Shown here in pieces: positions 1,066 to 39,204 of a DNA stretch of 64,000 nt (positions within the stretch are counted from its first letter, which is position 1; each line of letters begins with the position of its first letter). The DNA comes from an uncultured archaeon (GTDB taxonomy: Archaea; Nanobdellota; Nanobdellia; Woesearchaeales; CAIVOO01). The stretch spans positions 34,130 through 98,129 of the forward strand of contig CAIVED010000012.1 of NCBI GenBank assembly GCA_903904885.1. The letters are read 5' to 3'. A program made the translations under genes and the position numbers. The notes under the pieces are model-generated. The model was given only the letters and a program-made list of their open reading frames with translations. It was not told the origin of the DNA and searched no databases.

Positions 1066-1299
1066 GGGAGGCTTCGGGACAGCGATTTCACCGGGATTTA
1101 CAGCTGCCTCACCCCCTGTTTTTGCCTCTTTCTTGCCTATGAACGGAATAGCCACCAAATCCACCTCTTTTTGGGTCTTTAAATGAATGTTTTATTTATT
1201 AAGGTTGCGGTTTAAAGCGCCTGTTTAATTAGCCGTTAAACTGGGCATAGTGCCTGTAGAAACTCCAGGAGAAAAGCCACCATGCGCAAGTAATAATGC

Positions 1300-10693: not shown

Positions 10694-10705
10694 TTTTAAG
10701 ATGAT

Positions 10706-23400: not shown

Positions 23401-24055
23401 TGGATAATTTGCCCGTTGCATCGAACTGATAGTTCCCACCCCTGCCGGAATAGCTTCCCTTCATTCCTTCCACAACAATCCCGTCTTTTGTAAAGACTAT
23501 TTTCGACTTCGACTTGTCTCCGGCGGGAACCTCCAGCAAAGCCCTTTCAGTGGTCTTGGTATTTGTCAAGGAAAGCTTGCCGTCCTTGTCCTTGCCTATG
23601 TCGTTCTTATTGCCGGTCTTCCCTCCAACCAGAACGCCATTGACAAGAAATGCATCGTTAGGCAAGGCTTTTACGTCATCGCCCGTCTTGAAATTCTGCA
23701 GCGCAATTCGCGTATTGCCGTTTCTAAGGTAGGTAACGCCGCCAGCCGACTCTACGCTTATTGGGGAGGGGCTGCTGGTTCCTGTGCTGCTGATCAGGTC
23801 CCTTATGTTAATTGCTGCGCCATTCGCTACCTTGCTAAAATAAGTTTCTGCTCGTTGGGGATTGGCTCTTATGTTATTGGCAGAAGCAACGAAACTCTCA
23901 TCTGATTGGACAGTGGTAGGTTCAGGCTGATGAAGCCCTCCGGAACTGGGAACCGCGGTCTCCGGAGGATAGAGTGGATGCCCCTGCGCATAAACAAAAT
24001 GAACAGCTACGACTAAAATAATTGCCAGCAAAATGATTTTTTTATTCAATATCAT
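20441..24055 (-). CDS. Giant secreted/surface protein (1204 aa), unknown function
   Basis: Signal MILNKKIILLAIILVVAVHFVYAQG. Long low-complexity, beta-rich body. Translationally coupled to the upstream pilin-like gene (4-nt overlap). Confidence 0.6.
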   Translation of the reverse strand: MILNKKIILLAIILVVAVHFVYAQGHPLYPPETAVPSSGGLHQPEPTTVQSDESFVASANNIRANPQRAETYFSKVANGAAINIRDLISSTGTSSPSPISVESAGGVTYLRNGNTRIALQNFKTGDDVKALPNDAFLVNGVLVGGKTGNKNDIGKDKDGKLSLTNTKTTERALLEVPAGDKSKSKIVFTKDGIVVEGMKGSYSGRGGNYQFDATGKLSIENEGNTIRSQGAKVYDTGRFRLYDGSFEKKGDDTSLFFLNGKQSSFVQFNPNGKDLAISTAGYNVVVHSEYLPGDAGHTDGGKTTPLTPAEIDKRAEAAKANPPPKPPNFGGEIWYKTMGNDYIITSNGYVSFKAGKADNSMSLKSQGKISSPALAYAYQSAGAEASFYRGPDPNRQNVFLTTSLGRFKFETYNDKGVRELKADTTVYGNGENPQLIKMSLVSTPTANAMTVDGPGNSKKFMHLDVDAKFFNGNKDTNKDKAVSMDLSKTGDKLNVKLSGETLGAFGDAANKGWNIVPGGGKDFLLSDVKGTVYLGLNSQGLLLENSVATQIKGLEGSQGKYVNILGPDRMRQLLGGDASSVSSQQKTAIMGLSSNSRDGLLSAVRSLSPDTKAKLLKNAAGTEDAKVYQKLFDAQQILENCKTPNNCKAAEDLIKLYANYNDQNSKDSASVNAKQAYFDLFVAASAKPDTKIAADLLNSYIVNNQKGEYFGKADTILQKMKKFNDQDFNNYAAGKLELARYNLLRPENKVLFADESYAQMISYFAKVKPDSPFYGESQDIKKQVTIASLSMIQQNAKNQITENRQKFEETYGQAAGFTTAGTNLINFQTRTDLITWMNSNLNSQAWAMGVFMNLYTKRGMSIDDIQSALSDPTRRRELVAELFPATKDQQTLDMLGSKLVTNGVANPAFQALRRLGKGEDPQNVITNVGPQFWDVVEALVKPNMPEAMPTKTTFFNMPFVQGAELLKLTSGEYAAGAAIQIAVGFGAENLASAALTGVSRIGFESAALTAGQNLLTRAYTGIGAKLFEFTASQAECLFIGTCIGNLPAAKSILTKASWEGRTFIKDGVTYTIKSVDQKTGQIAAESAGKPLQTSIKELAEGSLSKKITIQDSNLVQSIEALQKDAETKAKKDAETVLQGSNKAIADEFAEAKRVKGDMKALVEKNPSIKYDADKGTIEIDAATLSQLKEKDPNVVKDWSHVPCG

Positions 24056-25092
24056 GATGGCTCCTCTATGTTTACCGGTGTCAAGCCTGCCACAACATTA
24101 AACACAACCACCTGCTCTGCCTTTCCTCCCTTGCCGTCATCTGCAGTTACGGTTACCCTGTACTCCCCGGGTGCAGGGGCAGTTGTGCTTATCTCCCCGG
24201 TGTCGGGATTGATTGGAAATTCCGGCGAATCTGTGGAAAAAGTTATATTGTCCCCGTCGGGGTCTGTTGCAACTGCCTTGGCATAAACGCTGCTCCCTGA
24301 AACAAATGCAAGGCTCTCCATATCCTCCATAACCGGAGCGCTGTTGGTTGACAGTTCGTAGGCGAACAGGAACATGTAGGTCCTGTTGTCAATGACCGTG
24401 GAGTTGTCAACGAGCGCAAAAATAAGCGTGTCCCCTGAAACCGGCAGGAGGTTGACATTAAGGCTCGGGAAAAAAAGGTCTGTAATGGTTATTCCCCCCC
24501 GGCTGTTGTCAATTATTTGAGAGGCAACATCATGATAGTATCCCAATTTTATCGGGACAGTGGAGTAAAAGCTTTTGAGGCTGCTGCTTTTTCCCAGGCT
24601 TCTCACCTCAATAGGATAGTTAACAGCAAACTGGACCTTGTCCTGGAATATTGTCGCATTTACAGTAATGTTTCCCTCGCTTATTTCAGTGCCCTCTTTT
24701 TTGAAATCCTCAAATCCTGCAGTGCACAGGGGAATAAACTCTTTCAGGTAATCTGATATTTCAGCCTGCATAGCCTCAATTGTCGGCAGGGTTGTGCTAT
24801 TTCCCGAGAATCCGTAGCCTATTGTAAAAATATCGCTGTCATAGGAATTTGCCGGCGGGTTTATGTAGCCGCCCTGCTCGCCAAGCAAATATATCCCAGG
24901 CACGGCTGTTTTCTGTATGCATTGCTCGACAAAGATTTGCAGCGGCCTAACATCCGCAGAAACCACTTCTCTCCCAGCGGTCGTTGTTGCCTGCTGGACC
25001 TGCATCTGCCTGGTGTAGATAAATACGCCAATTACAGCAATAAGAACCAGCCCTATTACAACAAATGTTGTTATCTGCCCTCTTTTTCCCAT
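24052..25092 (-). CDS. Type IV pilin-like protein (class III signal peptide) with a C-terminal Ig/cadherin-like domain
   Basis: MGKRGQ|ITTFVVIGLVLIAVIGVFIY fits the K/R-G cleavage context of archaeal prepilin peptidases. C-terminal ATDPDGDNITF...VTADDGKGG is an Ig-like repeat. Confidence 0.55.
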   Translation of the reverse strand: MGKRGQITTFVVIGLVLIAVIGVFIYTRQMQVQQATTTAGREVVSADVRPLQIFVEQCIQKTAVPGIYLLGEQGGYINPPANSYDSDIFTIGYGFSGNSTTLPTIEAMQAEISDYLKEFIPLCTAGFEDFKKEGTEISEGNITVNATIFQDKVQFAVNYPIEVRSLGKSSSLKSFYSTVPIKLGYYHDVASQIIDNSRGGITITDLFFPSLNVNLLPVSGDTLIFALVDNSTVIDNRTYMFLFAYELSTNSAPVMEDMESLAFVSGSSVYAKAVATDPDGDNITFSTDSPEFPINPDTGEISTTAPAPGEYRVTVTADDGKGGKAEQVVVFNVVAGLTPVNIEEPS

Positions 25093-25241: not shown

Positions 25242-26264
25242 ATGGACAGGAGAGAATGGCTTAGGACAGGAGTAGTCGCAACTGGCGTGAGTTTGGCGCT
25301 TTCAGTTGGATTAGGCCAGGAGTATAATAATCATGATTCTTCCAATGAATCAGGCAGACCTAAACAAATCGCAGAAGACCCAAATTTTAGATATTTGGTC
25401 AGGGAGCTTTTGCCGGCCCTTATAATTGCAAGCTATGAGAAAGACATCCACAGGAGCAAGGAGAATGAAAGTCTGTACATCGAACATGAGCATCCGTTCC
25501 TAATGTCCAAAAATCATGCAGTGTTGGATGAGAGATACAAACATCTGCTGGATAAATTAAGCAAGGTTGAAAGCAAAACCGGGATTTTTTTAAGCGATGC
25601 CGATAATGCCGCAAAAGCCTTGAGAAAAAGAGGCTATGCTTATCGCTGCGAACATTCTGTGCTTGATGATAAAATAAATACCTTCACTTTTGGAAACATA
25701 ACAGCGGATAAAGCGATTGTTAATCAGGACTGGGGGAAGAATGAAAAAAGAAATGTTGTGTACTTCCGGGATATAGTCCCTATTTTTGAGAAATATGTAA
25801 ATTTCAGGAATAGCGGCGGAATGAGAGACACAGAAGATAACTTGCTGTACATAAATCAAACTGCGCTTGAGGAGTATGCCGCAAGAATATTTAACAGTGA
25901 CCTAAAAGAGGCCAGAAAAAATCCGGCTGAGTTTGCAAATCATATGCTTCTCCGGGAATTCGAAGGGGACTCAATAGAACAGATTTTTGGCAAGATACAG
26001 GAATCTGTGACCCACCATGAAATGAATCATGGGGGGGAGGTTGAGGCACAGCTTTCCGAGCTTGAATACGGCACAACATTCCTTTCACTGGGCACGCTTT
26101 ACAAATCATTAAACAATAATAACAGTGACCAGATAAAACATGAAGCAGCCAAGATAATCTTCGGCAGGTTCAAGCAGAAAGGCTACAATCCGGAAGACCT
26201 GTTGTCAATGAGCCGGGAGAAAATAAAACGCATTGTTCTGGCAATTCATGATTCTGCAAATTAA
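25242..26264 (+). CDS. TAT-signal secreted protein with an HExxH motif (possible zinc metallopeptidase)
   Basis: RREWLRTGVVATGVSLALS and HHEMNHGGE. Confidence 0.45.
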   Translation: MDRREWLRTGVVATGVSLALSVGLGQEYNNHDSSNESGRPKQIAEDPNFRYLVRELLPALIIASYEKDIHRSKENESLYIEHEHPFLMSKNHAVLDERYKHLLDKLSKVESKTGIFLSDADNAAKALRKRGYAYRCEHSVLDDKINTFTFGNITADKAIVNQDWGKNEKRNVVYFRDIVPIFEKYVNFRNSGGMRDTEDNLLYINQTALEEYAARIFNSDLKEARKNPAEFANHMLLREFEGDSIEQIFGKIQESVTHHEMNHGGEVEAQLSELEYGTTFLSLGTLYKSLNNNNSDQIKHEAAKIIFGRFKQKGYNPEDLLSMSREKIKRIVLAIHDSAN

Positions 26265-28228
26265 CATTTAGCACAGTTCTTATCACTTACATCAGGTTCG
26301 CTGTAAGCAGCACCACAGCCTGCAGCGTTGCCGCTCGCAAAATAGAGCTTAACTACACCACAGGTAGTAGCAGGATGGTATATCACCCTGCAGCATCTCT
26401 CTCTGTGCGGAGTTGAAGGAGAATCGTCCCCATATACTTTATATCTCGCCCCCTGATTATCTGATGGTGCGATAGTAAACTGTTCTGCAGCCTTGCGCTC
26501 ATCAATTCTTTTCTGAAGATCGTCTGACTGTCTTTTTGCTTCAGCCTCTTGTTTTGCCTGTTCCTTGAAATAACTGCTTGGCGCAAGAGCCCCCGCAACC
26601 TTATTCCCATTCATAAAGTTAGAAGATGCCTGCATTAAATTCTCATTGGTACAGGCATCTTTTCGTCTCGTATCGCTCCATCCAGCATACATAATATCAC
26701 ACACTGGCTGGTCAGGATTGGGAGGCGCTAATCCCTTATACTGGTAATTTTGATAATAAGCTCCGGTAGGCTTCTGATAGTAATCAGCTAGCAAAGCATT
26801 TTGTACAGCAGTCCTCACTTCTTCAACAGTTTTGTCGTTATTTGTTGCATCTGTAATTTTCAGGAAGAATGCATTTTTTGGATTATCCCCATATTGAACA
26901 TAAGCCCAGTTTCCAAAAAGCTTAAGTTTGACGTCCATAGCTTTTTTGCCTGTTGAGGGATCAGAAACAGTCAAACCTTTGATACCTTTATCGGGCTGCT
27001 TAACATCTGTAACCTGTGTTAATTTTGTCACTCCTGTGCATTCTCTTGGAGGACCTTCCCCCGCCGTAGCCTGCCCCGTAATTGGATTAACACTGCAACT
27101 ACCCCCTTCTTTATTACACTGGCAGTCCCCATTAACACAGCTATAGCTTGAAAAAGGCTCGCCTGCTACAGAAAGATTAAGTGATTTTATTGAGTTGAGC
27201 ATTATGTTGTCTACAGCGTCAATTCCATTCTTGGAAGCAATAATTGTATTTACTGACTCTCCTATTTTCTCATTTATTACTATCGGAGCGCCTGTATCTT
27301 TGTCCACATTAAGTTTCAAGTTGTCATAGGGCCCTAAATAGTTTCCTCCAGCATCCTTTGTTGCCGAATAGCTTGCGCTTATGAGCGCTGCCTGGGCGCC
27401 GTCATTTGAAATTGACAAATCCTTGCCTGTTATGTCAACGCAATTCGTAGAAACCTTGCAGCCGCTTTTGTCAAATGAGAATGAGAATGAGTCTGTGCCG
27501 ACAACACCAAAGTCAGAATTATACTTGCTGTTGACATGTATGCTGCCTTCAACCTTGAATGTTCCGTCATTTTGGGGCGTTATTTTTCCGCCGGTTAAAT
27601 CTATTGTTTTGCCATGGCCATCATTAAGCTTTCCTTGAGATATTGAACCGGAAGAGTCTATCACAACCGGCTTGCCCGTTGAATCAGAAGTGTAGTTTGT
27701 CTTCTTGTCCGGCGATAAAATCAAAAGATTTCCATCGCTGTCAACCTTGAATGTGTACCCCGCCTTAGCCATATTGGCAAGCCCCTCTGTTGTAAACGTA
27801 TCGCCGTTTGCTGTGGTGAATGTGCCATCGGCATTGCGCCTAGCCATTCCATTATCCGCAACAGTTATTTGGATAGCTCCGCTGCTCTTGGTCTGTAAAT
27901 AAACAGTTGCTGCCTTGCCGTCCTTAAGCACTGATGGGTCACGTGCAGCAGCAGTTTCATAGGCTGCAGGATTAGTGCCTGCAATAGCCGGGTCTGCTTT
28001 GATTGCTGCCTTGTATGCATCAATGTTTTGCGTTAAATCATAATCCGGATGATTTTGGAGATATTGCGCATACCCCTGAGGATTATCCCGGGCATAGGCA
28101 ACCTGGTCTTGAGGGTTCAGTTCATTAAATTGCTGATCTTGGGCATAATTAATCTTTGTATTTAATATTAATATAGAGGATACTAAGATAACAAGCGCCA
28201 TTAACCCAAAAACAATACTTTTCTTCAT
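26261..28228 (-). CDS. Large secreted protein (655 aa), Cys-rich C-terminus
   Basis: Signal MKKSIVFGLMALVILVSSILIL. G/T/S/N-rich beta-type composition. Confidence 0.55.
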   Translation of the reverse strand: MKKSIVFGLMALVILVSSILILNTKINYAQDQQFNELNPQDQVAYARDNPQGYAQYLQNHPDYDLTQNIDAYKAAIKADPAIAGTNPAAYETAAARDPSVLKDGKAATVYLQTKSSGAIQITVADNGMARRNADGTFTTANGDTFTTEGLANMAKAGYTFKVDSDGNLLILSPDKKTNYTSDSTGKPVVIDSSGSISQGKLNDGHGKTIDLTGGKITPQNDGTFKVEGSIHVNSKYNSDFGVVGTDSFSFSFDKSGCKVSTNCVDITGKDLSISNDGAQAALISASYSATKDAGGNYLGPYDNLKLNVDKDTGAPIVINEKIGESVNTIIASKNGIDAVDNIMLNSIKSLNLSVAGEPFSSYSCVNGDCQCNKEGGSCSVNPITGQATAGEGPPRECTGVTKLTQVTDVKQPDKGIKGLTVSDPSTGKKAMDVKLKLFGNWAYVQYGDNPKNAFFLKITDATNNDKTVEEVRTAVQNALLADYYQKPTGAYYQNYQYKGLAPPNPDQPVCDIMYAGWSDTRRKDACTNENLMQASSNFMNGNKVAGALAPSSYFKEQAKQEAEAKRQSDDLQKRIDERKAAEQFTIAPSDNQGARYKVYGDDSPSTPHRERCCRVIYHPATTCGVVKLYFASGNAAGCGAAYSEPDVSDKNCAKC

Positions 28229-28274
28229 GTTCTCAAACTTTTTATTATCTACTGTTATTTATATTTTACTACTC

Positions 28275-29054
28275 TCAAATCCAGGCATATTTAAGCGCGA
28301 ATGAATATACATAAGGCTGGCCGTTTATGATTGTGTTCTCATCAACCTGGTCAACTACAACATTCCCGCTGCCAAAATAGCCTGCGTATGATTTGATGCC
28401 ATTTTGATAGGATATGTCCAGGAGGCTTCCTGACCTGAAGGAGAACAATGCTTCGGATTGCTTGTCAAGATACTCGTTAGAAGCATTTATCATCAATGCT
28501 AAAGGAACATTAACCTCTGCAGAGAATTTTTGCATTGAGCTTTTGGAATTATCTTTTGCTATGCCTATGGGATAGTCAACAGTGAACAGGACTTTTGATG
28601 GCAATATTAATGCGGTTGCAGAAACATTGCCAAATTCAAAGCTATAACCCTCATTCTGGAATGAACTCAGATTGCCGACGCAATCAGAAAGGCGCCGGTT
28701 CATGTAGGTAGAAAGCGAGGATTGAACATAATCAATGCTTGTCCTGTAAAGTGTGATATTATTTTGCTGTGATGGATCAGGGTATAGATAATAAGGAACA
28801 TCATAGAAACCTACTCTTATGTATTTATCAGGCAAATAATCCCCGCCTTGTGCGCTAACGTCAACAACAGCATACTCTGCAGTTTTCGCAACACACTGGT
28901 CAACGAATGTCTGTATAGGCACAACATCCGGAGGAACAGCTCTCTCTAAACTGGCTTTTGTAGTCACCCCGGTCATGTAAATAAAAAACGCGACTACAGC
29001 AAGTACAACAATCCCAAGAATGATGAATGTGGTTATCTGCCCTCTTTTCCGCAT
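28275..29054 (-). CDS. Type IV pilin-like protein (class III signal peptide), paralog of 24052..25092
   Basis: MRKRGQ|ITTFIILGIVVLAVVAFFIY. Confidence 0.55.
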   Translation of the reverse strand: MRKRGQITTFIILGIVVLAVVAFFIYMTGVTTKASLERAVPPDVVPIQTFVDQCVAKTAEYAVVDVSAQGGDYLPDKYIRVGFYDVPYYLYPDPSQQNNITLYRTSIDYVQSSLSTYMNRRLSDCVGNLSSFQNEGYSFEFGNVSATALILPSKVLFTVDYPIGIAKDNSKSSMQKFSAEVNVPLALMINASNEYLDKQSEALFSFRSGSLLDISYQNGIKSYAGYFGSGNVVVDQVDENTIINGQPYVYSFALKYAWI

Positions 29055-30699: not shown

Positions 30700-33600
30700 T
30701 TGGCTGTGGAAGCTTCCAGAAGGGTAAGGATGGAAGTGGTGGCAGTAGTCCTGGCCATCATTGCTGTACTCGCAGTTGTATTTATAGCAGGGCAGGTCTA
30801 TAAAACCCCTGCCGAAACACCTGCGGTTTCTGTGAAAAGCGAATTGGCAGAGGGTTCATACACAAAGGAAATCCAGCCCGATAAAATTTCATTCGTTGAA
30901 AACAAGACCTCCACTCCGCTGGCAGAGGTCAGCTTCAGCGGGCTTAAAACAGACATCAAGGATGTTGATTCAAAGATAGTTGCATCTTCAAATCTCATGT
31001 TCAGGTCGGGCATATTTGCAGTCAGGGATGCAGGGGCAGTTTTCAGTGAAGCCAGGATAACAATGAAGAAAACCGGCAATGTTAATGTAATTTTTTACTG
31101 CCAGGACTTTGACTTTGAAAAAGAATCCTGCCCGGGTGACTGGGCCAAAAGCGACATTCCCTTCACCCAGACAATGAAAGAGGTTACATTCACAGTAAAT
31201 CATTTTTCAGCCTATGCCCCGGGCGAATTCGGGATTTTAAGCGAGTTCCAGGGCAATGGCGTCTGCCGCGCCTATGCAAACAATGACAGCATCCTTACCG
31301 GCAACATCACTGATTGCCCAGATCAAAGCATATTCATAAATGCCTCAAATATCGTTTTCGACTGCCAGGGCTATTCCATCCTCAACAGCAGTGGGGGATT
31401 TTGGGCGCAAAACCTCAGCAATATAACAATAAAAAACTGCAATGTAGATGCCCATGGCAACGGGATTAACCTGATAAATATCAACAGCAGCAGCTTGCTC
31501 AACAACTCAGTTTACAATGCACTTGGCGGCGGCATTAACGTTTATCTCAGCTCCGGAAATTTATTTGCAGGAAACAACGTTTCAAAATCACAGGGCAGCG
31601 CAGGTTTTGTAATTGACACATCCAGCAATAATCATTTTGAGAACAACCGATTCCACAGCAATCTTAACCGCGGATTAAGCATAGGTGTCGGGGACAACAA
31701 TTCCTTTGTGAACAACCAATTTTACAACAACCATCACGAGGGGGCAACCGCAAATCTCGGTGAAAACAATTCCTTCGTGAACAACAGCTTTTTCAACAAC
31801 TCTGCGCATGGCCTTACTTTTTCCTGGGGGACTCTCAATTTATTTGAGAACAACAGCTTTTCCAACAACACAGGAGATGGATTGTACGTATCCTCTGTAG
31901 AAAACAACACCTTTGTTGGCAACAATTTCTCAGGCAACCATAATAACGGCTTTACGTCATATGGCGGCTCTAACTCTTTAATCAACAACCGGGCATTTAA
32001 CAACCAACTCGAGGGTATTTACATTTTTATGACACCCGGTTACTATTTGATTAACAATTCTGCTTTTAACAACCCAACAGGCTTTTACCTAACAAGCACA
32101 ACCGGAAGCGTTCTAGAGAACAATTCCGCATTCAACAACAATTTGGGCTTTTACGTTTCATACTCAGATAATGCAACGGTTTTAAACAACACCGCCTTTG
32201 GCAATGTAAAGGGTTTTGAGCTTGCAAGCACAACAAACAGCACCATAGCCGGCGCCTACGCCTACAGCAACAACATAGGATTTTTCCTGCATCCCTCTGA
32301 CATCAGCCTAACTTTTGAAAACAGCACCATAGCGGGCAATTCAGGCCAGGACCTTTTTCTTGAAGGAACCTGGCACCTCTACAACCGCTCATTCAAAAAT
32401 GTGCTTCTCGGCCCCAATACATTCATAGGGGACAATGCGACAGCAATTATTTCCCCGCTTGTAATCTACAGCAACCTGTCTTCAATAGACTATGGCAATA
32501 TGACGCTGAGCAATGTTTCGCTGAATGGCTCTGCTTCCCTGGAAGACAATTACATCTATCTTAACTCTTCAAAAATACCCGCCCTGAACATATCTGCCAA
32601 CGTAACATTCAGGAACCTCCCGTGGACATCAATGCCCCAGCTATTCAAAGACGGCGCAAGATGCGATGACAATCCTGCACTGTGCAACATAACCGCCTTT
32701 GACCCGTGGACAAGGACCCTTACTGCCCAGGTTTCCTCTTTTTCAAACTACACAACTGGAAATGCATCAACCTGCTTCAATGCGACTGATGATTTGTACA
32801 TTAATGGAAATGCGGTGATATGCGATAGTTATTTCCGGGTGAATGACACAAATGACGATGGGGTTATAATAATCAACAAATCAGGGATAGCCCTCACACT
32901 TGGCACAAGCGACATTTTCTACCTTTCGGGAAATGGCTCTGGAAAGGGGGTTGTTGTTGAGAATAAAACAGGCGTGACAATTATCATGCGCAATTCAAAT
33001 AGCCCGCACATTGGTTATTACGGAACAGGGATTTATGTCAAAAACTCAAGGGACATTACATTATATAGCCCTGCAATCGGCGATTCAGATACGGGGCTGC
33101 TATTGTACAATTCTACCAATGTGATAGTCCAAAAATCCTCTGATACTATTTATTGTGCCTTTGAAAGCAATACCCAAGGCATTGTAATCTATCTGGGAGG
33201 AAACAATAGCATCAATTCTTTTGATAGGCTGATGTACAATTCTTATGGGATAAATGTAACTGACTCTTCCGGGAATAGGATAATTTCCAACTATTATTCC
33301 GGCTATTCTCCCACTTCTGTAGGTGATGTCAGATGGAATTCAAAAGCAGCAATTTACCTCAGGAATGCAAATAACCTGGTAGTGAGCGGAATGCAGTTTA
33401 CTGATAACACGTTGTCATTTGATATGATAAACTCAACTAATATATCATTGGCAACATTCCCTCTTAATGTTTATCGTCTATCTTTCTCTAACAGCAGCAT
33501 GCGCTTGAACTCGTCCAAGATTAATATTCTTAGGGGGGCTAATTATATGGTTCCACTTTATCTAGTCCGATCGCCAATAATTGCCCAGGATTCGGAACTA

Positions 33601-35556
33601 AACATCAGCGGGGTAACTTTTGCATCAGCAAGCACACTAATAACCCTGCTTAATTCAACAATAGACATATCCAACAGCACGTTCTCTGATTCTGACGTTG
33701 GCATTGCGATTAACAAAACATCTGGCACCAGCAGGATAGTCAACAATTCTTTCACAACTCCCCAGAACATCAGCATCTATGCCGAGGACTCGTCCGGAAT
33801 AATGATTTCAAATATAATTTCAAGCGCAGTTTATTATCTTTACTCTGTAAATTCAAATTCAACAGTCTCTGCAATTCTAAACAACCTGCTTTTCTCGGAC
33901 TCCAGTTCAAGGGTAAATGCAACCAATCTGACTTTCCCTTCGGCTAATGCCTCAATCTCATATCTCAATGTTGTTTTAAACGGCACAATCAATACCTCCT
34001 CCGGGGTTTATCTTCTCTACAATCTTTCAGGAATTGACCCATCAATTTCCCCGGGGCTTAATGCAAGCGCCCAGGTGACATTGCGCTTCCTCCCATGGCC
34101 TATCACCCCATTTGTTGAAAAAGACGGAGTGAGATGCGACAATACATCCTCCTGCTCCGTCCTGGGCTATGACAACAGCACAGGAACCCTTGTTTTCAAT
34201 GTTATGGGGTTCTCAAACTACAGCTCATCAAACCCGAATCTTCCCGGGACTCCTGACACCACACCGCCGACACCCCCTGCTGTTTACGACGGCCTGAACT
34301 TTGTTGACTTCAACTGGACAGGAAGCAACACAACATTATATGCATCATGGAACGGCTCCTTTGACCGAAGCAACATATTTTACAGCTACAGGATAATGGA
34401 CAAAAACGGCTCATGCTACAACGGCCAGTGCGCATTCCAGTTTGCCGGGAGCGCACAGCAGATTACAGTTTCAAACCTCAGCCTTGCGATATGCCACAAC
34501 TACCTTTTCAAGGTGCAGGCAGAGGACACTTTTTACAATGTGGCAAATTTATCGTCATCAGACGGTATAACCATTGAAATTGAAAACCCGACGGTGCTTG
34601 CAATTGACAGCTCCACTCACCCGAGCCAGTCCATTTTTTACCCGAAAAGCACGGTAAGGCTCAACTGGTCTGCAAGCGACACAAATCTTACAGGCTGCTC
34701 CTCAGGAATTGCAGGCTACTCCTATCTCTTTGACCAGGATTCTGGAAGCTTCCCTGACGGAACAATTGAAACAAATGACACAAACGCCACGTTCACAAAT
34801 GTGCCCAGCGGCACATGGTATTTCCATATAAGAGCGGTGGACAATGCAGGGAATGCCGGCGACACGCTTGTGCGCACAGCAAGAGTGAACGTGACAGAAG
34901 TTTCTGTAAATCTGAATCCATCCGAAACCCCAACGCTTCTGAGCAATGCAACAATATACGGAAGCATAACAAAAAACTCCTCCGACCTCCTTAAAATATA
35001 CAAAAATGACAATAATACCGCAAATATTTCAATTAGCCAGGCTCAAACTGCATTCAATTTTACAGTTAATCTTGACATGGGAATTAACACAATATACGCA
35101 AATGCCTCGCTTAATGGCTCGGTTGCTGCAAAATCAAACACACTTTACATAAGAAGGGCGAATGAGACGAGGCTGAACGCAACCGGGTTCACGGTTTCCT
35201 ACAGCGGGGGAACACTGACAGATTCCTCTGCAAGCAGCCTGGTTTCAACGGCTTCTGCAAATTCCAATTTCGGAATAGGAAAATCCGCAGGCAGATTGTT
35301 TTTGTTTGTTACATCCCCTTCAGCAAACATTGCAGCAAGGACAGGATACGTAACAAACAACACGCTCTTTGACCAGATTAACCCTTCGGTGGGATTCCCG
35401 CTTGAAATAGAGCAAAACATGATAAGCACAATACTGAACTACCAGGATATCCATCTGGAGGGCAACCAGTCTGTGCAGACAGGAAGGTACACGCTTGTGA
35501 TAACAAACAACGGCACTGTGGGAGGGAAGCCCCAGATTCTGGTAAGGATAACATGA
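30700..35556 (+). CDS. Giant surface protein (1618 aa): N-terminal signal anchor, right-handed parallel beta-helix (PbH1/NosD-like) repeats, heavily N-glycosylation-sequon-rich
   Basis: MAVEASRRVRMEVVAVVLAIIAVLAVVF anchor. About 20 tandem ~22-aa repeats of the NNSFVNNQFYNNHHEG type between residues ~290 and 540. NxS/T sequons run throughout. C-terminal region TPPTPPAVYDGLNFVDFNWTGSN resembles FN3. Confidence 0.75.
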   Translation: MAVEASRRVRMEVVAVVLAIIAVLAVVFIAGQVYKTPAETPAVSVKSELAEGSYTKEIQPDKISFVENKTSTPLAEVSFSGLKTDIKDVDSKIVASSNLMFRSGIFAVRDAGAVFSEARITMKKTGNVNVIFYCQDFDFEKESCPGDWAKSDIPFTQTMKEVTFTVNHFSAYAPGEFGILSEFQGNGVCRAYANNDSILTGNITDCPDQSIFINASNIVFDCQGYSILNSSGGFWAQNLSNITIKNCNVDAHGNGINLININSSSLLNNSVYNALGGGINVYLSSGNLFAGNNVSKSQGSAGFVIDTSSNNHFENNRFHSNLNRGLSIGVGDNNSFVNNQFYNNHHEGATANLGENNSFVNNSFFNNSAHGLTFSWGTLNLFENNSFSNNTGDGLYVSSVENNTFVGNNFSGNHNNGFTSYGGSNSLINNRAFNNQLEGIYIFMTPGYYLINNSAFNNPTGFYLTSTTGSVLENNSAFNNNLGFYVSYSDNATVLNNTAFGNVKGFELASTTNSTIAGAYAYSNNIGFFLHPSDISLTFENSTIAGNSGQDLFLEGTWHLYNRSFKNVLLGPNTFIGDNATAIISPLVIYSNLSSIDYGNMTLSNVSLNGSASLEDNYIYLNSSKIPALNISANVTFRNLPWTSMPQLFKDGARCDDNPALCNITAFDPWTRTLTAQVSSFSNYTTGNASTCFNATDDLYINGNAVICDSYFRVNDTNDDGVIIINKSGIALTLGTSDIFYLSGNGSGKGVVVENKTGVTIIMRNSNSPHIGYYGTGIYVKNSRDITLYSPAIGDSDTGLLLYNSTNVIVQKSSDTIYCAFESNTQGIVIYLGGNNSINSFDRLMYNSYGINVTDSSGNRIISNYYSGYSPTSVGDVRWNSKAAIYLRNANNLVVSGMQFTDNTLSFDMINSTNISLATFPLNVYRLSFSNSSMRLNSSKINILRGANYMVPLYLVRSPIIAQDSELNISGVTFASASTLITLLNSTIDISNSTFSDSDVGIAINKTSGTSRIVNNSFTTPQNISIYAEDSSGIMISNIISSAVYYLYSVNSNSTVSAILNNLLFSDSSSRVNATNLTFPSANASISYLNVVLNGTINTSSGVYLLYNLSGIDPSISPGLNASAQVTLRFLPWPITPFVEKDGVRCDNTSSCSVLGYDNSTGTLVFNVMGFSNYSSSNPNLPGTPDTTPPTPPAVYDGLNFVDFNWTGSNTTLYASWNGSFDRSNIFYSYRIMDKNGSCYNGQCAFQFAGSAQQITVSNLSLAICHNYLFKVQAEDTFYNVANLSSSDGITIEIENPTVLAIDSSTHPSQSIFYPKSTVRLNWSASDTNLTGCSSGIAGYSYLFDQDSGSFPDGTIETNDTNATFTNVPSGTWYFHIRAVDNAGNAGDTLVRTARVNVTEVSVNLNPSETPTLLSNATIYGSITKNSSDLLKIYKNDNNTANISISQAQTAFNFTVNLDMGINTIYANASLNGSVAAKSNTLYIRRANETRLNATGFTVSYSGGTLTDSSASSLVSTASANSNFGIGKSAGRLFLFVTSPSANIAARTGYVTNNTLFDQINPSVGFPLEIEQNMISTILNYQDIHLEGNQSVQTGRYTLVITNNGTVGGKPQILVRIT

Positions 35557-36011
35557 ACAAGAAATCCCAGTTTTACATTTTGACCGCAGTCGTGCTTATT
35601 GCGATTACATTCGGGCTTTTTTCCTCGCAGAAAATGATTCCAAAACCGGAAAATGCATTCGGCCTGCTGGTTGACAACTATCTCAAGGAGGCGCCGTTTG
35701 CTGCAAACTCAGGCAATCTTGAAGATTTCACGCTGAGATTTTACGATTTGGCTGCATCAAAAGAACCGGATTTTGAAATGGTTTCATTCTATGTTTCCCA
35801 GGACAATGTTTCGGTGCTTAGCCTTGCAAAACCAACCATTTTTATAAACCAGCATAATGTTTCATTCAGGCAGAGCATCGTTTTCCAAAGGCCGGATGCT
35901 GCGATGGTTTCAATAGGCCAGGAGCAGTACAGCATAGACACCGCAACCACCGGGATTAAAACAATATTTTTAATGAGCAAGGAAGACAGCAGGAACGTGA
36001 GGGTAGAATGA
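35553..36011 (+). CDS. Putative pilin-like protein (class III-like signal), ATGA-coupled to the giant protein
   Basis: MNKKSQFYILTAVVLIAITFGLF. Confidence 0.45.
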   Translation: MNKKSQFYILTAVVLIAITFGLFSSQKMIPKPENAFGLLVDNYLKEAPFAANSGNLEDFTLRFYDLAASKEPDFEMVSFYVSQDNVSVLSLAKPTIFINQHNVSFRQSIVFQRPDAAMVSIGQEQYSIDTATTGIKTIFLMSKEDSRNVRVE

Positions 36012-36493
36012 GAAAAAAAGGGGTTTCAGAATGGGTTTCGTATGTTCTTCTCACAGGATTTGTAGTGGTCCTTGCGGCCTTTGTCTACAGCTGGATGACC
36101 AGCTATACAACCCAGACAACATCTGATGTAAAAGAAAGGGTTTTTAACAGCGAATTATGCGACCTTATGGGGGTAAGCGTTAACGCCTGCATCAACACAT
36201 CAACATCGCAAAGTTTATATATAAATGTAACCAACAGAGGTGATTTAAGGACAACAAGGCTGGTGTTCAGGTTTTTGCAGTTGAATGGCACCTCGATCCA
36301 AAACATGTATGACATTGAAACCGACAGCATTGTAAAGCCGCAGTACACAAAAAGCTTCAATGCGACCATGCTTAACCTTACATGGCTTGTCAACAGCGGC
36401 ACCAAGGTTGAGGTCGTGCCGGCAACTGAAAAGGAGGGCTTTTTGGTTGTCTGCAGCGAAAAAAAGGGAGAGGCATATTTCCACAGCTGCTGA
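36008..36493 (+). CDS. Type IV pilin-like protein (class III signal peptide)
   Basis: MRKKG|VSEWVSYVLLTGFVVVLAAFV. Multiple NxT sequons. Confidence 0.55.
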   Translation: MRKKGVSEWVSYVLLTGFVVVLAAFVYSWMTSYTTQTTSDVKERVFNSELCDLMGVSVNACINTSTSQSLYINVTNRGDLRTTRLVFRFLQLNGTSIQNMYDIETDSIVKPQYTKSFNATMLNLTWLVNSGTKVEVVPATEKEGFLVVCSEKKGEAYFHSC

Positions 36494-36829
36494 TTGTTGA
36501 TTATAAAAAGAGGCGAAAAATTGAAAAAAGAATTTTCAGACCTTGAAAGGGAGATTGTGGAGATTGAGGTTGAGAAATCCCGCCTTAACAGGGAAAAGGC
36601 AATGATTGTGCTCAACAAAAGCCTTTTCATATATTTCTGCTTTCTTTTCGTTGGCATAATTGGGTTTATCAACTCCTATGTTTCAAAAACAGTGCTTAAC
36701 ATAATAATATTCGTGGGCCTTGTTGTGCTGGTTATAGGAACCATTCCCTACGTACAGACCATGAAGGCTGAAGAGAAAAAATTAAATACGCTTATTGATG
36801 ATTTGAAAAAAAGAGGTGTCAGATTATAA
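36494..36829 (+). CDS. Small membrane protein with an N-terminal coiled-coil
   Basis: Charged coiled-coil-like N-terminus followed by two hydrophobic helices. Confidence 0.45.
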   Translation: MLIIKRGEKLKKEFSDLEREIVEIEVEKSRLNREKAMIVLNKSLFIYFCFLFVGIIGFINSYVSKTVLNIIIFVGLVVLVIGTIPYVQTMKAEEKKLNTLIDDLKKRGVRL

Positions 36830-37350
36830 TGTTCAAGAAAAAAAAAGGCGTTTCACCGCTTATAGCAACGGTCCTGCTTATAGCATTTGCCGTTGCATTG
36901 GGCGCTGTGGTTATGAACTGGGGAAGGACCTATGTTGAGGATACCGCATCCCTCGCAAGGGAAAAGTCAGACACTGAAATAAAGTGCAGCTCTGATGTCA
37001 AGCTTGAATTTCTTTCAATCAAAAATGTAGAGAAGCTCTGCTATGAATACACCACAACAACCAAGCTTAATATGACCATTGAAAACACCGGGAAGCTGGA
37101 CATTGTCGGGCTGCAGGTTACCGTTGTCGGGGAAAAGAACATAAACACCACAGAAATAGACCTTAAGGCAGTCAACGCCTCGCTGAAAAGGTCCCGCTTT
37201 TACAGGAATGAGAGCATAGAGATGAGCGATCTTGGCGCCCCAACCCAGGTAAGGATAGTGCCGGAAATAGAGGTAAGCGGAAACAGGATATCCTGCCCTC
37301 AAACCGCGCTTACAGAGGATACTTTCCTGAAAAAATGCAGTGAGATTTGA
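36829..37350 (+). CDS. Type IV pilin-like protein (class III signal peptide; archaeal pilin/archaellin-type N-terminus)
   Basis: MFKKKKG|VSPLIATVLLIAFAVALGAVV. The GVSP[LV]IATVLLIA pattern is typical of archaeal type IV pilins. Confidence 0.65.
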   Translation: MFKKKKGVSPLIATVLLIAFAVALGAVVMNWGRTYVEDTASLAREKSDTEIKCSSDVKLEFLSIKNVEKLCYEYTTTTKLNMTIENTGKLDIVGLQVTVVGEKNINTTEIDLKAVNASLKRSRFYRNESIEMSDLGAPTQVRIVPEIEVSGNRISCPQTALTEDTFLKKCSEI

Positions 37351-37778
37351 GGATGGCTGAGCGATCAAAAGCAGTTACCCTGTTTATTTTTCTCTTTTTC
37401 ATTTTTATCATGCTCGGCGCAATAATATTCATTTTTACATACAGCACATACAGGAACACATCAAACTACAGCACTTCAACAACGAAAAACTCTGTTGACT
37501 GCACAGGCTATTCATTCAGGGTTGTGGGCGGGACGCTTTCCTACGAAAACACAACGCTTTCGCTCGATGTTGACACGACACTTGCAACAGAAAGACAGAA
37601 AAATTCCCTTGTTTTTGTGGTCAACGGGAAAGAAACTGAAAGCCGGCCGGTTGATTTCACAGTCAGGACCCAGAAGCTTAAAATTGATGTTGAAAAGCCC
37701 GGGGCATTTGATGTTTATGTCAAGGGCTGCCCCGATATAAAAAGAAAATGCGATTTGGCGGCGAACCAATGCACATGA
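37347..37778 (+). CDS. Putative pilin-like protein
   Basis: MRMAERSKA|VTLFIFLFFIFIMLGAIIF. Confidence 0.45.
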   Translation: MRMAERSKAVTLFIFLFFIFIMLGAIIFIFTYSTYRNTSNYSTSTTKNSVDCTGYSFRVVGGTLSYENTTLSLDVDTTLATERQKNSLVFVVNGKETESRPVDFTVRTQKLKIDVEKPGAFDVYVKGCPDIKRKCDLAANQCT

Positions 37779-38515
37779 AAAAAGGCCAGCTTTGGATTTC
37801 AGCAGTGCTTTACGTTCTGATAGTTGTTGTTGTCATAGTTATTGTACTTGAAGCCCTTACCCCGGTTATTGAAAACCTGAAAGACAAGGCAGTTTTCAAC
37901 AGGATAAGGGACACATTTTTGACGATAAATGAATATGTGAGGGATGTAAGCTCAGAGGGTAGGGGAAGCCAGAGGACCATTCCGGTTGAGATACAGAAAG
38001 GCAGCCTCTCTGTTGAGAGCAATGAAATAAAATGGAACCTTAACACAGAGGCAAACATCCTTGAGCCAAGGACCCAGGTGGAGCTTGGCAATCTCATAGT
38101 TGTTTCAAACGGGGATGTTGATGCCTATGAGACAAATGAAAGCACATTTGTGCTTCGAAATTCCAGGGCATTTTTTGAGTTCTATGAATATGGGTCGCTT
38201 CTTAATTCCACAAACCAGACAAACAGCTCAGGGGGCATCGTTGCATTCAAGGGGTCTTCAATTATAAAAAGGACAGCCTATGCCCAGGGCTCAAATCTCC
38301 TTAACCTTACTCCATCCTATTCATTCTTTGTTCCGCCGGATGATGCGAACACGATGATAAGAGGATATACTGTTTTGCCCAGGACGGGCTCGGGCATTGG
38401 AAAAGCGAATGTTCTTGCCCATGTCAACACAACAAATTATGAATATGACATTGTTTTTACATTAGAAAGCCAGGCAGACTACCTCCAGGTTGACATGGTG
38501 AAGGGGCTGAACTGA
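37748..38515 (+). CDS. Type IV pilin-like protein (class III signal peptide)
   Basis: ...MHMKKGQ|LWISAVLYVLIVVVVIVIV. The true start is probably the internal Met at 37769 or 37775. Confidence 0.55.
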   Translation: MRFGGEPMHMKKGQLWISAVLYVLIVVVVIVIVLEALTPVIENLKDKAVFNRIRDTFLTINEYVRDVSSEGRGSQRTIPVEIQKGSLSVESNEIKWNLNTEANILEPRTQVELGNLIVVSNGDVDAYETNESTFVLRNSRAFFEFYEYGSLLNSTNQTNSSGGIVAFKGSSIIKRTAYAQGSNLLNLTPSYSFFVPPDDANTMIRGYTVLPRTGSGIGKANVLAHVNTTNYEYDIVFTLESQADYLQVDMVKGLN

Positions 38516-38520
38516 GCATT

Positions 38521-38750
38521 TCTTTTTAACAAAATTCCGGTTGCTGGTTCTTGCATTTTTTCAAGCAAATGGCTCAAATAAAATACCGCCTTTTGGTTCT
38601 TGTATTACCCCCGCTATTTTGTCTGCTTCTTCTGCCTGAGTGCCATGCAAGAAATTAGTAATACTTGCCATCGGCAAGTTATGCAAGCCTGGCAATCCGG
38701 GCAGACAGGATAGTCAAGGATGAACGTTAAGGCTTGCCTAGAAAAAGATT
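38521..38750 (+). repeat. Repeat element copy C (forward; its 5' module is duplicated)
   Basis: AAAATTCCGGTTGCTGGTTCTTGCATT..., a second TTTTGGTTCTTGTATTACC, ...GCTTCTTCTGCCTGAGTGCCATGCAAGAAA, hairpin ACTTGCC-ATC-GGCAAGT, GCCTGGCAATCCGGGCAGACAG, ...GGCTTGCCTAGAAAAAGATTTTATTTT. Confidence 0.8.
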
Positions 38751-38793
38751 TTATTTTAGAAAATTTTATATACCAAAAGGGGAAAACACAACC

Positions 38794-39204
38794 ATGAACC
38801 CCGACTGCATCTTCTGCAAGATTGTGAAAGGCGAAATTCCCTGCGCAAAGGTTTATGAGAACCAGAAGTATGTGGCGTTTCTAGACATAACGCCTGTAAA
38901 TCCAGGCCATACGCTTGTTATTCCGAAAGAACACTATGAAGATTTATTGAACACCCCTGATTCTGTTTTGGACGGAATGCTTAATGATTCCAAGAAAATA
39001 GCAAAGGCAGTCCTGAAGGCGGTGGGGGCAGAGGGTTTTAATTTAACGGTAAATGTTGGCCCTGTTTCAGGCCAGGTTGTTCCACACCTTCATATTCACA
39101 TAATGCCCCGCTTTCCTAATGATGGCCATCACCTTTTCAAAGGCGGAGCCTACAAGGAAGGCGAAATTCAGAAGGTTGCTGAGAAGATAAGGCAAAACCT
39201 TTAA
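38794..39204 (+). CDS. HIT family hydrolase (canonical histidine triad)
   Basis: MNPDCIFCKIV... and VPHLHIHIMPR (HxHxHxx). Start moved to the internal Met of ORF 38734..39204. Confidence 0.8.
   Translation: MNPDCIFCKIVKGEIPCAKVYENQKYVAFLDITPVNPGHTLVIPKEHYEDLLNTPDSVLDGMLNDSKKIAKAVLKAVGAEGFNLTVNVGPVSGQVVPHLHIHIMPRFPNDGHHLFKGGAYKEGEIQKVAEKIRQNL

Follow-up and report, generated by a model that had tools for sequence, protein, structure and literature searches.

Results

A cluster of surface-protein and pilin-like genes

We analysed a 64,000-nucleotide stretch of archaeal DNA (hereafter the window), in which the open reading frame list places seven tightly packed genes on the plus strand at positions 30700-38515. 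The genes, here called A to G, lie where the first-pass annotation had put seven open reading frames and encode proteins of 1618 (A), 152 (B), 161 (C), 102 (D), 173 (E), 141 (F) and 248 (G) amino acids. Gene starts were corrected from public gene calls and orthologues, giving TTG 36521 for D, ATG 37353 for F and ATG 37769 for G; a public call for A uses an alternative GTG at 30706 and yields 1616 aa. The ATGA overlap previously said to couple the giant gene to the run of small genes is present at the A/B junction and recurs at B/C. D and E overlap by 1 nt, F and G by 10 nt at the corrected coordinates, and gaps of 27 nt and 2 nt separate C from D and E from F. A T-rich tract (ATTTCTTTTT, 38518..38527, plus strand), recognised from the sequence only, begins 3 nt past the stop of G; it is a possible archaeal oligo-T terminator, which would mark the operon end here. 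TATA-like elements occur upstream of A, and a sigma-70 promoter scan was set aside because the organism is archaeal.

The giant protein A

Gene A (30700..35556, plus strand) encodes a surface protein that has a transmembrane anchor at the N terminus, then two beta-helix blocks and, at the C terminus, a conserved module, as read from the open reading frame and Pfam; public assemblies contain an identical protein. Matches to Beta_helix (PF13229; E=3.4e-36, 124.7 bits against a gathering score of 25.9) and NosD (PF05048; E=4e-27, 95.5 bits against 23.6) identify A by sequence as a right-handed parallel beta-helix protein. Where about 20 PbH1-type repeats had been claimed, we count more than 20 coils over two blocks. 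The first block (residues ~200-600; 31297..32499, plus strand), delimited by Pfam stretches and sequence periodicity, is built of ~22-residue, N-x-S/T-rich coils and is conserved in close relatives only. The second (residues ~700-1080; 32797..33939, plus strand) was delimited from the sequence and contains six Pfam Beta_helix stretches. Each block is followed by a similar ~60-aa domain, and these cap-like domains, at residues 630-688 and 1118-1177, form with the blocks an internal duplication.

Residues 11-31 of A are a hydrophobic segment (MEVVAVVLAIIAVLAVVFIAG, 30730..30792, plus strand) that is probably a signal anchor, as first proposed, and not a conserved class III site. We rejected a class III reading of this N terminus on the evidence of the residue before the hydrophobic run in close homologues (E, G or A) and of the ordinary Sec-type signal peptides in distant ones. 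No recognisable pilus-targeting signal was found on A, which has the N-terminal membrane anchor instead; in this clade the protein could simply be a membrane-tethered surface protein. The sequons noted earlier throughout the protein number 88 NxS/T, about twice the shuffle mean (41.9 +/- 5.3), and the cytoplasmic proteins of the window carry 0-0.5 per 100 aa. Together, the anchor and the two-fold excess suggest that A is likely to be extracellular and glycosylated, and N-glycosylation may be heavy.

Conservation of A is concentrated at its C terminus. BLASTP subjects number 0-3 over residues 1-1150 and 19-34 per 50-residue bin over residues 1201-1618, and this coverage defines a C-terminal module (residues 1184-1618; 34249..35553, plus strand) of Ig/FN3-like repeats and a terminal domain, with weak Y_Y_Y and PKD hits. 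Across the related large proteins only the last ~440 aa of A are conserved, always C-terminally in full-length matches. The N-terminal 70% is unconserved even among close relatives, which have unrelated passengers of 300 to >2000 aa instead. By this comparison the beta-helix part of A is a variable passenger.

Pfam searches of the C-terminal modules of A and its homologues gave sub-threshold Ig/FN3-like matches only. A phmmer search with the C-terminal 448 aa of A gave 2147 hits, with as many as 18 copies in one protein, and showed the Ig/FN3-like block 1 to be a promiscuous repeat found in giant proteins generally. Diagnostic value is therefore left to the terminal domain alone. An alignment of homologues delimits this terminal ~120-aa domain (residues 1497-1618; 35188..35553, plus strand) and its motif, FIFVTKP...NPSFGY...L.Y.DI.I.G...G.Y.L.I.N.G. 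The protein ends 57-60 residues past PSFG in 26 of 32 homologues and 57-75 residues past it in 31 of 32; one of the 32 lacks the exact PSFG motif. The domain had no Pfam match and, in a search of its profile against PDB sequences, no match there either. We propose that it is a docking domain.

Pilin-like proteins and their processing sites

We defined the class III motif as a short basic leader that ends in [KR][GAS] and leads into a hydrophobic helix of ~20 residues, and scored its conservation across ~40 Woesearchaeota genomes. A simple scan of the 1779 candidate start-ORFs of the window gave nine matches; B, C, E, F and G, which lie side by side, account for five of them and a neighbouring surface-protein cluster for two. 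The first-pass annotation had assigned class III signals to all five adjacent genes. Those of B, C, E and G are conserved in orthologues; the fifth, RSKA/VTLF in F (a slash marks the cleavage site), is not, with Lys at -1 in most orthologues. The sites first given for B and G were each one residue too late, and orthologues place them at KKS/QFYIL and KKG/QLWIS.

Profile comparisons identify E and C as archaeal type IV pilins. E (36829..37350, plus strand; site KKKG/VSPLIATVLLIAFAVALGAVVMNWG) scores 30.4 bits against TIGR02537 (cut-off 20) and also matches UpsA weakly, and its profile retrieves two archaeal pilins of solved structure, 8fk7 and 8gi2, at E~6e-4. Its class III site is strongly kept (K/R at -2 in 49/50 orthologues, A/G at -1 in 50/50), the first 25 residues of mature E do not vary among five distant orthologues and four Cys are conserved; E is a candidate major pilin. 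C (36008..36493, plus strand; site RKKG/VSEW) scores 20.5 bits against TIGR02537 (cut-off 20) and is a paralogue of E (hhalign 98.7%, E=3e-16), with A, G or S at -1 in 28/28 anchored orthologues; we regard it as a candidate minor pilin.

The remaining three are more divergent. In B (35553..36011, plus strand), the class III motif is kept in 29/29 orthologues with Gln at +1, and a transmembrane helix is predicted to precede a helical hairpin and an Ig-like beta-sandwich. G (37769..38515, plus strand) has its site at KKG/QLWISAVLY, assigned from orthologues, with K/R at -2 and A/G/S at -1 in 41/41 orthologues and Q at +1 in 32/41. Homologues of G form 28 clusters, of which those with a source name are labelled Woesearchaeota; 12 of the 28 members match DUF7289 weakly, a family on which we found no literature. 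Each pilin-like protein is modelled as an N-terminal helix followed by a beta-rich domain. For G (AF2, pLDDT 75.9) the model comprises a long helix at 4-61 and 14 strands, with no significant PDB fold match, and the models of both B and G have a pilin-like layout and no significant match to solved pilins. F (37353..37778, plus strand) consists of an N-terminal transmembrane helix and a Cys-containing beta-rich domain. Its orthologues mostly begin ...SKK/ISVLIFLF, with Lys at -1, and some loci have extra E paralogues in place of F; from these comparisons F is a pilin-like membrane protein in which no class III cleavage site is conserved. By hhalign, none of B, G and F was significantly related to the pilin profile built from E (for F, E=0.0057 and probability 6%). 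B, F and G did not match the pilin models TIGR02537 and PF07790, and scans of B, D and F, including divergent orthologues, with Pfam and NCBIfam returned no family.

Synteny and filament machinery

We collected 47 related loci, and the gene order is kept in ~40 related species. Relatives have record titles naming Woesearchaeota or Nanoarchaeota, but 15 of the 47 are titled 'uncultured Methanosarcinales archaeon' (TPA assemblies), labels that we treated as unreliable because the same loci share the operon with MAGs named Woesearchaeota. Directly after B-C-D-E-F-G, 38 of the 47 loci encode a FlaI-like ATPase, followed by a ~70-aa protein (s70) and a split FlaJ/TadC platform (F1 and F2), which in related loci is always two genes; B-C-D-E-F-G-ATPase-s70-F1-F2 is colinear in three of them (L001-L003). 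Of 34 informative loci, 32 encode a homologous large sequon-rich protein immediately upstream of B, and the two genes often share 4 nt; the refuting condition named in the first-pass annotation, a giant protein with no association to the pilin-like genes in related genomes, thus does not hold. Some loci have two such proteins in tandem, and the large proteins of most relatives begin with an ordinary Sec signal peptide. The G proteins of these loci, from dozens of species, share 35-67% identity. Sequence and synteny give the ancestral operon the order [large surface protein]-B-C-D-E-F-G-[FlaI-like ATPase]-[~70-aa coiled-coil protein]-[FlaJ N-half]-[FlaJ C-half]; we found no description of it in the literature on Woesearchaeota pili.

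The machinery genes of the present genome lie apart from the cluster. A FlaI-like type IV filament ATPase, detected by tblastn and a family HMM, runs off the window start, its first 385 codons occupying 1155..1 on the minus strand (71% identity to the L001 ATPase by tblastn; family HMM E=3.7e-209). In the same organism this ATPase is a T2SSE protein of 566 aa, and the genes that come after it, just left of the window, encode a 70-aa protein and two T2SSF proteins; tblastn found no platform gene inside the window. The earlier statement that ATPase and platform sit elsewhere in the window thus holds for the first 385 ATPase codons and not for the platform, which is just beyond the left end, and the suggested check of the remaining genome for a FlaJ/TadC-like platform is answered by the two T2SSF genes. 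From this arrangement we conclude that the ATPase and platform genes have been relocated by ~30 kb and now occupy the opposite strand. Among curated models the ATPase is closest to FlaI (409-421 bits), while F1 matches the N-terminal half of FlaJ and F2 its C-terminal half. Both marks of a type IV filament system, a T2SSE/FlaI-family ATPase linked genetically to the pilin genes and a polytopic T2SSF/FlaJ/TadC platform protein, are recognisable in these sequences.

An A24 prepilin (class III signal) peptidase is encoded at 15223..16080 on the plus strand (Pfam Peptidase_A24, 3.1e-17), with a weak FlaK match, and in the relative L002 a homologue lies directly upstream of the operon's large-protein genes. 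The enzyme is a candidate for processing B, C, E and G. The remaining small gene, D (36521..36829, plus strand), encodes two transmembrane segments and charged helical ends according to the orthologue alignment. It is the most conserved small gene of the set (85% identity to its L001 counterpart). Its mean pairwise identity across 31 loci is 0.57, compared with 0.63 for the ATPase and 0.59 for F2, and D evolves as slowly as these motor components; we propose that it is a membrane assembly component and not a pilin.

Comparison with known filament systems

The locus combines traits of two described archaeal systems. Like System 1 (clade 1), represented by the Methanococcus maripaludis Epd pilus, it splits the platform into two genes after the ATPase and gathers many different pilin-like and accessory genes in one operon. 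As in M. maripaludis, pilin and ATPase/platform genes stand at separate loci in this window, and B and G share the +1 Gln of EppA substrates (PMC3875500). Loci with two platform genes, including System 1, have been reported in DPANN archaea (bioRxiv 10.64898/2026.04.22.720090). Epd/System 1 is further defined by DUF361 pilins with +1 Gln and +5 Glu and by the 9-TM peptidase EppA (PMC3875500; PMC4858521). B and G, however, have Leu or Ser at +5 and no DUF361 match, the peptidase is only weakly FlaK-like, and we found no ~70-aa Flp-like major pilin here; E is instead a PilA/Pilin_N-type pilin with a globular domain, and a giant protein with a conserved C-terminal domain has no described Epd counterpart. 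Despite the two platform genes and the +1 Gln, the sequences place the locus outside the Epd pilus and System 1.

Resemblance to System 2 (clade 2; Haloferax PilA-PilB3C3) lies in the PilB3_C domain on the ATPases, weak in some, and in E, which matches Pilin_N-type pilins including Natrinema PilA2. Archaeal type IV filament loci described in published surveys include some that encode large adhesin-like proteins, additional membrane proteins and pilin-like proteins in which the class III motif is missing (bioRxiv 10.64898/2026.04.22.720090; PMC4858521), and A, F and D fit the System 2 locus description (bioRxiv 10.64898/2026.04.22.720090). That description gives a single platform gene (bioRxiv 10.64898/2026.04.22.720090), unlike the invariable two here, and B, D and F are without a Pfam or NCBIfam family, G weakly touching DUF7289. 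Homologues of A are giant DPANN and methanogen surface proteins, as for archaeal PbH1/NosD-like surface proteins, but the beta-helix is here a variable passenger, absent from other large proteins at the same operon position.

In type IVa pili, PilY1 forms the tip complex with the minor pilins (FimU-PilVWXE). The present operon likewise joins one large non-pilin protein to several minor pilin-like genes, the large protein is conserved C-terminally and variable N-terminally, and in most relatives a normal signal peptide, not a class III one, exports it; these PilY1 features are drawn in part from bioRxiv 10.1101/2023.07.22.550172. A shows no sequence relationship to PilY1, and its C-terminal domain is ~120 aa and not a beta-propeller; Pfam detected no PilY1/PilC domain in A or its homologues. 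Any resemblance to PilY1 would be one of function only.

Discussion

We consider it probable, from the sequences compared, that the pilins and the adhesin of a type IV filament system conserved in Woesearchaeota are encoded here as one module, in a lineage-specific variant. The dedicated type IV pilus-like fibre of a DPANN archaeon that was first suggested is supported by the tie between the giant-protein and pilin-like genes in 32 of 34 informative loci, the ATPase/platform synteny in 38 of 47 loci, the TIGR02537 matches, the hits of the E profile to solved pilins, the A24 peptidase and the titles of the relatives' records. All of this evidence is genomic. In the mechanism that we propose, the A24 peptidase would remove the short leaders of B, C, E and G, and the ATPase and split platform would polymerise E, with its invariant N-terminal helix, to form the filament shaft. 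Priming of assembly, or a position at the tip, would fall to B, C, G and perhaps F as subunits of low abundance. Many major pilins of archaea are encoded by genes that stand on their own (PMC4858521) and E is intra-operonic, so the true shaft subunit could be encoded elsewhere. The giant, probably glycosylated protein A would be coupled to the filament by its conserved C-terminal ~120-aa domain and present its fast-evolving beta-helix passenger as a binding, or polysaccharide-acting, surface. A and the minor pilins would then be functionally analogous to bacterial PilY1 with its minor pilins, and attachment to host cells or surfaces is the likely use in a DPANN cell. Tip display by A and host attachment are what we infer from these sequences.

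The same genes could instead build a short pseudopilus or anchoring device, a pilin stub that exports or holds the large glycoprotein, in the manner of the type II secretion pseudopilus or the Sulfolobus bindosome. Five pilin-like genes in fixed order recall GspG-K, the large protein is translationally coupled to B, and in most relatives its Sec signal means that it would need retaining. The ATPase also partially matches the bindosome ATPase BasE (218-231 bits), but this score is far under the cut-off of 1000 and weaker than the FlaI match, and the cluster encodes no substrate-binding proteins bearing class III signals. An invariant 25-residue N-terminal helix, as in E, is what a polymerising shaft subunit is expected to have. 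We judge the stub unlikely. A might also be an S-layer-like or envelope protein merely co-regulated with the pilus, for example for envelope remodelling where the filament crosses, and not a filament-borne adhesin. S-layer-like proteins recur in euryarchaeal type IV pilus loci (PMC4858521) and have been suggested to prime the cell wall for pilus passage (bioRxiv 10.64898/2026.04.22.720090); A shares with S-layer glycoproteins a membrane anchor and dense sequons, and its Ig/FN3-like block recurs widely among giant surface proteins. The swapped passengers in its unconserved N-terminal 70%, however, fit a variable ligand-binding part better than a lattice protein, and the tandem pairs in some loci also speak against an envelope role, which we hold to be very improbable.

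Two further readings have almost no probability left. In this window no ATPase or platform gene adjoins the cluster, as expected if a giant surface-protein gene merely happened to lie beside unrelated small membrane-protein genes, yet adjacency and order are kept in dozens of species whose G proteins have diverged to 35-67% identity, and a chance neighbourhood is effectively refuted. A reduced archaellum, that is, a rotary motility filament, is suggested by FlaI as the best curated ATPase match and by the ArlJ/FlaJ matches of the platform halves. We rejected this identity, to which we give next to no credence: the scores lie under the equivalog cut-offs (FlaI 550; ArlJ/FlaJ 400-570), none of B, C, E, F and G matches an archaellin domain, and FlaH, FlaG, FlaF and FlaX genes were not seen in any locus examined (L001-L003).

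Within the preferred reading of a type IV filament module, we tentatively suggest, as a possibility on the doubtful side, that the Woesearchaeota tip complex is a non-homologous counterpart of PilY1 and its minor pilins. The C-terminal domain of A would plug interchangeable giant passengers, beta-helix and Ig-repeat types among them, onto a priming complex that consists of B, C and G, and perhaps also F, and caps a filament of E; the rapidly swapped passenger would set host or substrate specificity, and D, like the ~70-aa coiled-coil protein, would be a new core part of the assembly machine.

To our knowledge, little has been learned about the way in which DPANN archaea recognise their hosts and keep hold of them, and we know of no cultured representative of the Woesearchaeota. 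The locus, with its order kept in ~40 related species, is a candidate for cell-to-cell attachment in this group. It defines a lineage-wide set of ten core genes and a modular giant protein, and opens predictions on the shaft subunit, the priming subunits, the adhesin-docking domain and the host-variable part. B, D, F and G, as well as A through its C-terminal domain, define families without curated annotation that may serve to detect such systems in metagenomes and to classify them. If the tip-complex reading is true, the swapped passenger would be a determinant of host or substrate specificity in an uncultured DPANN lineage.

Gene context and assembly machinery

We confirmed the cluster reported in the first-pass annotation as seven closely packed plus-strand ORFs at 30700-38515: A (30700-35556, 1618 aa), B (35553-36011, 152 aa), C (36008-36493, 161 aa), D (36521-36829, 102 aa), E (36829-37350, 173 aa), F (37353-37778, 141 aa) and G (37769-38515, 248 aa). 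For D, F and G, the start codons were corrected using public gene calls and orthologues. ATGA overlaps join A to B and B to C, D and E overlap by one base and, in corrected coordinates, F and G by ten; a T-rich tract lies 3' of the G stop codon. The window is archaeal and encodes an intron-containing tRNA, EF-2, EF-1alpha, thermosome and FtsZ. Past the cluster, a 119-nt tRNA match (39233-39351, plus strand; Rfam 49.7 bits) implies an intron and is absent from ARAGORN output. Three HIT-family paralogues flank the cluster (29497-30006 and 30003-30602, minus strand; 38734-39204, plus strand). A divergently transcribed HIT-HIT pair and a small zinc-ribbon (DUF5679) gene also lie upstream of the giant gene in two related loci, L001 and L004, and a TTTATATA element is conserved within the shared intergenic region.

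Gene context in relatives is the deciding evidence for the case. The closest relative (L001, GCA_964485195.1) retains the order HIT-HIT followed by A to G, and 3' of G carries a DUF460 gene, a 123-aa ORF, a 613-aa T2SSE ATPase (PilB3_C), a 70-aa protein and two T2SSF platform genes. In distant relatives, whose G is 38-41% identical, the ATPase, ~70-aa protein and both T2SSF genes stand directly after G, and a peptidase A24 gene heads one such operon. Scanning for the G family in one genome per species yielded 47 loci; the record titles name Woesearchaeota or Nanoarchaeota for 32 of them, and the other 15 are labelled 'uncultured Methanosarcinales archaeon'. Family HMMs revealed a colinear B-C-D-E-F-G-ATPase-s70-F1-F2 arrangement in loci on sufficiently long contigs, where s70 is the ~70-aa protein and F1 and F2 are the platform genes. 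The ATPase follows G in 38/47 loci, and most remaining loci stop at a contig edge. Exceptions to the order are L007, with an orphan copy of G, L051, where the cluster is reduced to B-E-E-E-G, and a sub-clade with extra E-type pilins in place of D and F. F1 and F2 correspond to the N-terminal and C-terminal halves of ArlJ/FlaJ, respectively, and the closest match of the ATPase is FlaI, at a score under the FlaI cut-off. The ~70-aa protein, a predicted coiled coil with no transmembrane segment and no family match, is always encoded after the ATPase and ahead of the first platform gene (21057-21269 in L001; equivalents in 34 loci); it may represent a part of the machinery not described before.

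The first-pass annotation had placed an ATPase and platform elsewhere in the window. This held for the ATPase, a homologue of which starts at 1155 on the minus strand and extends past the window edge (71% identical to the L001 ATPase), but no platform gene was found within the window. Same-sample contigs bearing an exact copy of the window's ABC transporter protein continue into genes for a T2SSE protein of 566 aa, a 70-aa protein and a pair of T2SSF proteins (537-545 and 311 aa), indicating that the machinery module is intact. It has been inverted and now lies ~30 kb from the pilin/adhesin module. A peptidase A24 gene occupies 15223-16080 (plus strand), its probable start being an internal Met near 15223; the longest ORF, 15106-16080, overlaps an opposite-strand 302-aa ORF (14440-15348, minus strand) by ~240 nt.

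Small proteins B to G

Pilin assignment is clearest for E and C, which scored 30.4 and 20.5 bits against the NCBI archaellin/type IV pilin N-terminal model (cut-off 20) and are paralogous (hhalign 98.7%, E=3e-16). The E profile matched solved archaeal pilus subunits, namely 8fk7, Natrinema PilA2 (8gi2), a Pilin_N protein and Iho670. Mature E begins with 25 residues, VSPLIATVLLIAFAVALGAVVMNWG, that do not vary even in orthologues as low as 37% identical overall, and four Cys are also conserved. B, F and G belong to no curated Pfam or NCBIfam family, except for a weak DUF7289 match in 12/28 G-family members, mainly across the N-terminal helix. In the AlphaFold2 models, B (pLDDT 86.6) consists of a transmembrane helix, helical hairpin and beta-sandwich, and in G (pLDDT 75.9) a helix spanning residues 4-61 precedes 14 strands.

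We assessed the class III processing sites proposed in the first-pass annotation by conservation of [KR][GAS] before a hydrophobic helix, using ~40 orthologues per family. The motif is kept in B (29/29, all with Gln at +1), C (28/28 at -1), E (49 to 50 of 50) and G (41/41, 32 of them with Gln at +1). F differs: Lys occupies -1 in most of its orthologues (...SKK|ISVLIFLF), and the 'RSKA|V' seen here is therefore no conserved cleavage site. F may have arisen from an E-type pilin: its similarity to E is weak (hhalign E=0.0057), and the sub-clade L036, L037, L038, L042 and L051, which is without D and F and has a tandem run of three or four E-type paralogues separating C from G, suggests such an origin. 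Protein D is not a pilin. Charged helices flank its two transmembrane segments, and its mean pairwise identity (0.57) is on the level of the ATPase (0.63) and small platform protein (0.59), above that of B, C, E, F and G (0.28-0.41).

The giant protein

Protein A matched Beta_helix (E=3.4e-36) and NosD (E=4e-27). A ~60-residue domain, similar in both cases, comes after each of its two beta-helix blocks, implying internal duplication. The duplicated region (31297-34230) comprises two copies of a block plus cap-like domain; the caps, at residues 630-688 and 1118-1177, share LN(I/A)SA.VT(F/L)R.LPW...(K/E)DG.RCD. A carries 88 N-x-S/T sequons versus 41.9 +/- 5.3 in composition-keeping shuffles; the density in cytoplasmic proteins encoded in the window is 0-0.5 per 100 residues. 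At the N-terminus of A, a basic stretch leads into ~20 hydrophobic residues. When homologues were compared, no class III site proved to be conserved there, and in more distant homologues the signal peptides are of the ordinary Sec type.

A sequon-rich protein of 785 to >2546 aa lies upstream of B in 32 of the 34 loci with enough upstream sequence, ending between 25 nt inside and 260 nt before the B start (941-nt gap in one locus), frequently with a 4-nt overlap. These proteins are homologous to A or to the two large proteins of another locus, L002. The large protein belongs to the system and is modular. Residues 1-1150 of A were matched by 0-3 subjects, compared with 19-34 per 50-residue bin for residues 1201-1618, so the beta-helix is a variable passenger, and what accompanies the pilin genes is the conserved C-terminus. 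That C-terminus comprises Ig/FN3-like repeats (G.WYFH.RA.D.AGN), a common giant-protein repeat with up to 18 copies per protein in a library-wide search, and a ~120-residue domain (FIFVTKP...NPSFGY...L.Y.DI.I.G...G.Y.L.I.N.G) that forms the C-terminal end in every case and matched nothing in Pfam or among PDB sequences.

Other genes in the window

Two minus-strand gene pairs at 20441-29054 each encode a class III-like protein and then a large Sec-signal protein. One comprises a 346-aa protein (25092..24052; MGKRG|QITTF, C-terminal Ig/PKD domain) and a 1204-aa protein (24055..20441), the other a 259-aa protein (29054..28275; MRKRG|QITTF) and a 655-aa protein (28228..26261). L001 retains both pairs and L004 part of them; they could be further filament-associated surface modules. 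The 1204-aa protein has zero N-x-S/T sequons (shuffle mean 11.0; 0/1000 shuffles as low), as does a 602-aa protein at 18642-20450 (minus strand; 4/1000 as low), the opposite of the two-fold excess in A. Twin-arginine-like N-termini, RRN(L/F)L..., occur in three tandem paralogues at 9650-12732 (plus strand; 347, 339 and 336 aa) and in a fourth protein at 25242-26264 (plus strand; 340 aa), none of which falls in a Pfam family.

Proposed function and alternatives

We consider the locus to be, quite probably, the pilin and adhesin module of a type IV filament (TFF) system. The adhesive pilus or fibre envisaged in the first-pass annotation is thereby supported in its core, as the large protein, ATPase and platform are syntenic with the pilin genes in relatives. 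The mechanism is mostly inferred: the A24 peptidase would trim B, C, E and G, and E would be polymerised into the shaft by the FlaI-like ATPase and split platform, with D and the 70-aa coiled-coil protein as probable accessory components. Minor, priming or tip roles would fall to B, C and G, and possibly to uncleaved F; A would be coupled to the filament by its terminal domain, leaving the variable, putatively glycosylated passenger facing outward. The arrangement would parallel the tip complex that PilY1 and minor pilins form in bacteria, a functional likeness only, with no homology. Docking specifically at the tip is a tentative and rather doubtful part of the model.

The same genes might instead build a short pseudopilus or bindosome-like anchor, which we regard as unlikely. 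Less probable still is that A is an S-layer-like envelope protein merely co-regulated with the pilin genes. Chance adjacency and an archaellum are both effectively excluded. The favoured reading, a pilin and adhesin module, can be compared with described TFF systems. In System 1 (Epd type), which occurs in DPANN, two platform genes accompany many pilins; System 2 (PilB3/PilA type) has large adhesin-like proteins, pilin-like proteins without class III motifs and extra membrane proteins (bioRxiv 10.64898/2026.04.22.720090; PMC4858521). The operon combines features of both. It resembles System 1 in its split platform and the +1 Gln of B and G, and System 2 in the PilB3_C domain, PilA-like pilin E, adhesin-like giant protein, pilin-like F without a class III motif and membrane protein D. 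However, it lacks the +5 Glu, DUF361 and short Flp-like pilin of Epd and, unlike System 2 as described, its platform gene is not single, so that it fails strict membership of each. No description of the Woesearchaeal operon or the A terminal domain was found in the literature searched, and we therefore view the operon as a lineage-specific variant.

Type IV pili with adhesins are what a specialist would expect in DPANN archaea. The novelty lies in an order of ten genes kept across ~40 species, combined with a giant passenger that is interchangeable and borne on a conserved domain, for which we propose a docking role. The operon offers a sharper, more testable handle on DPANN attachment than before.
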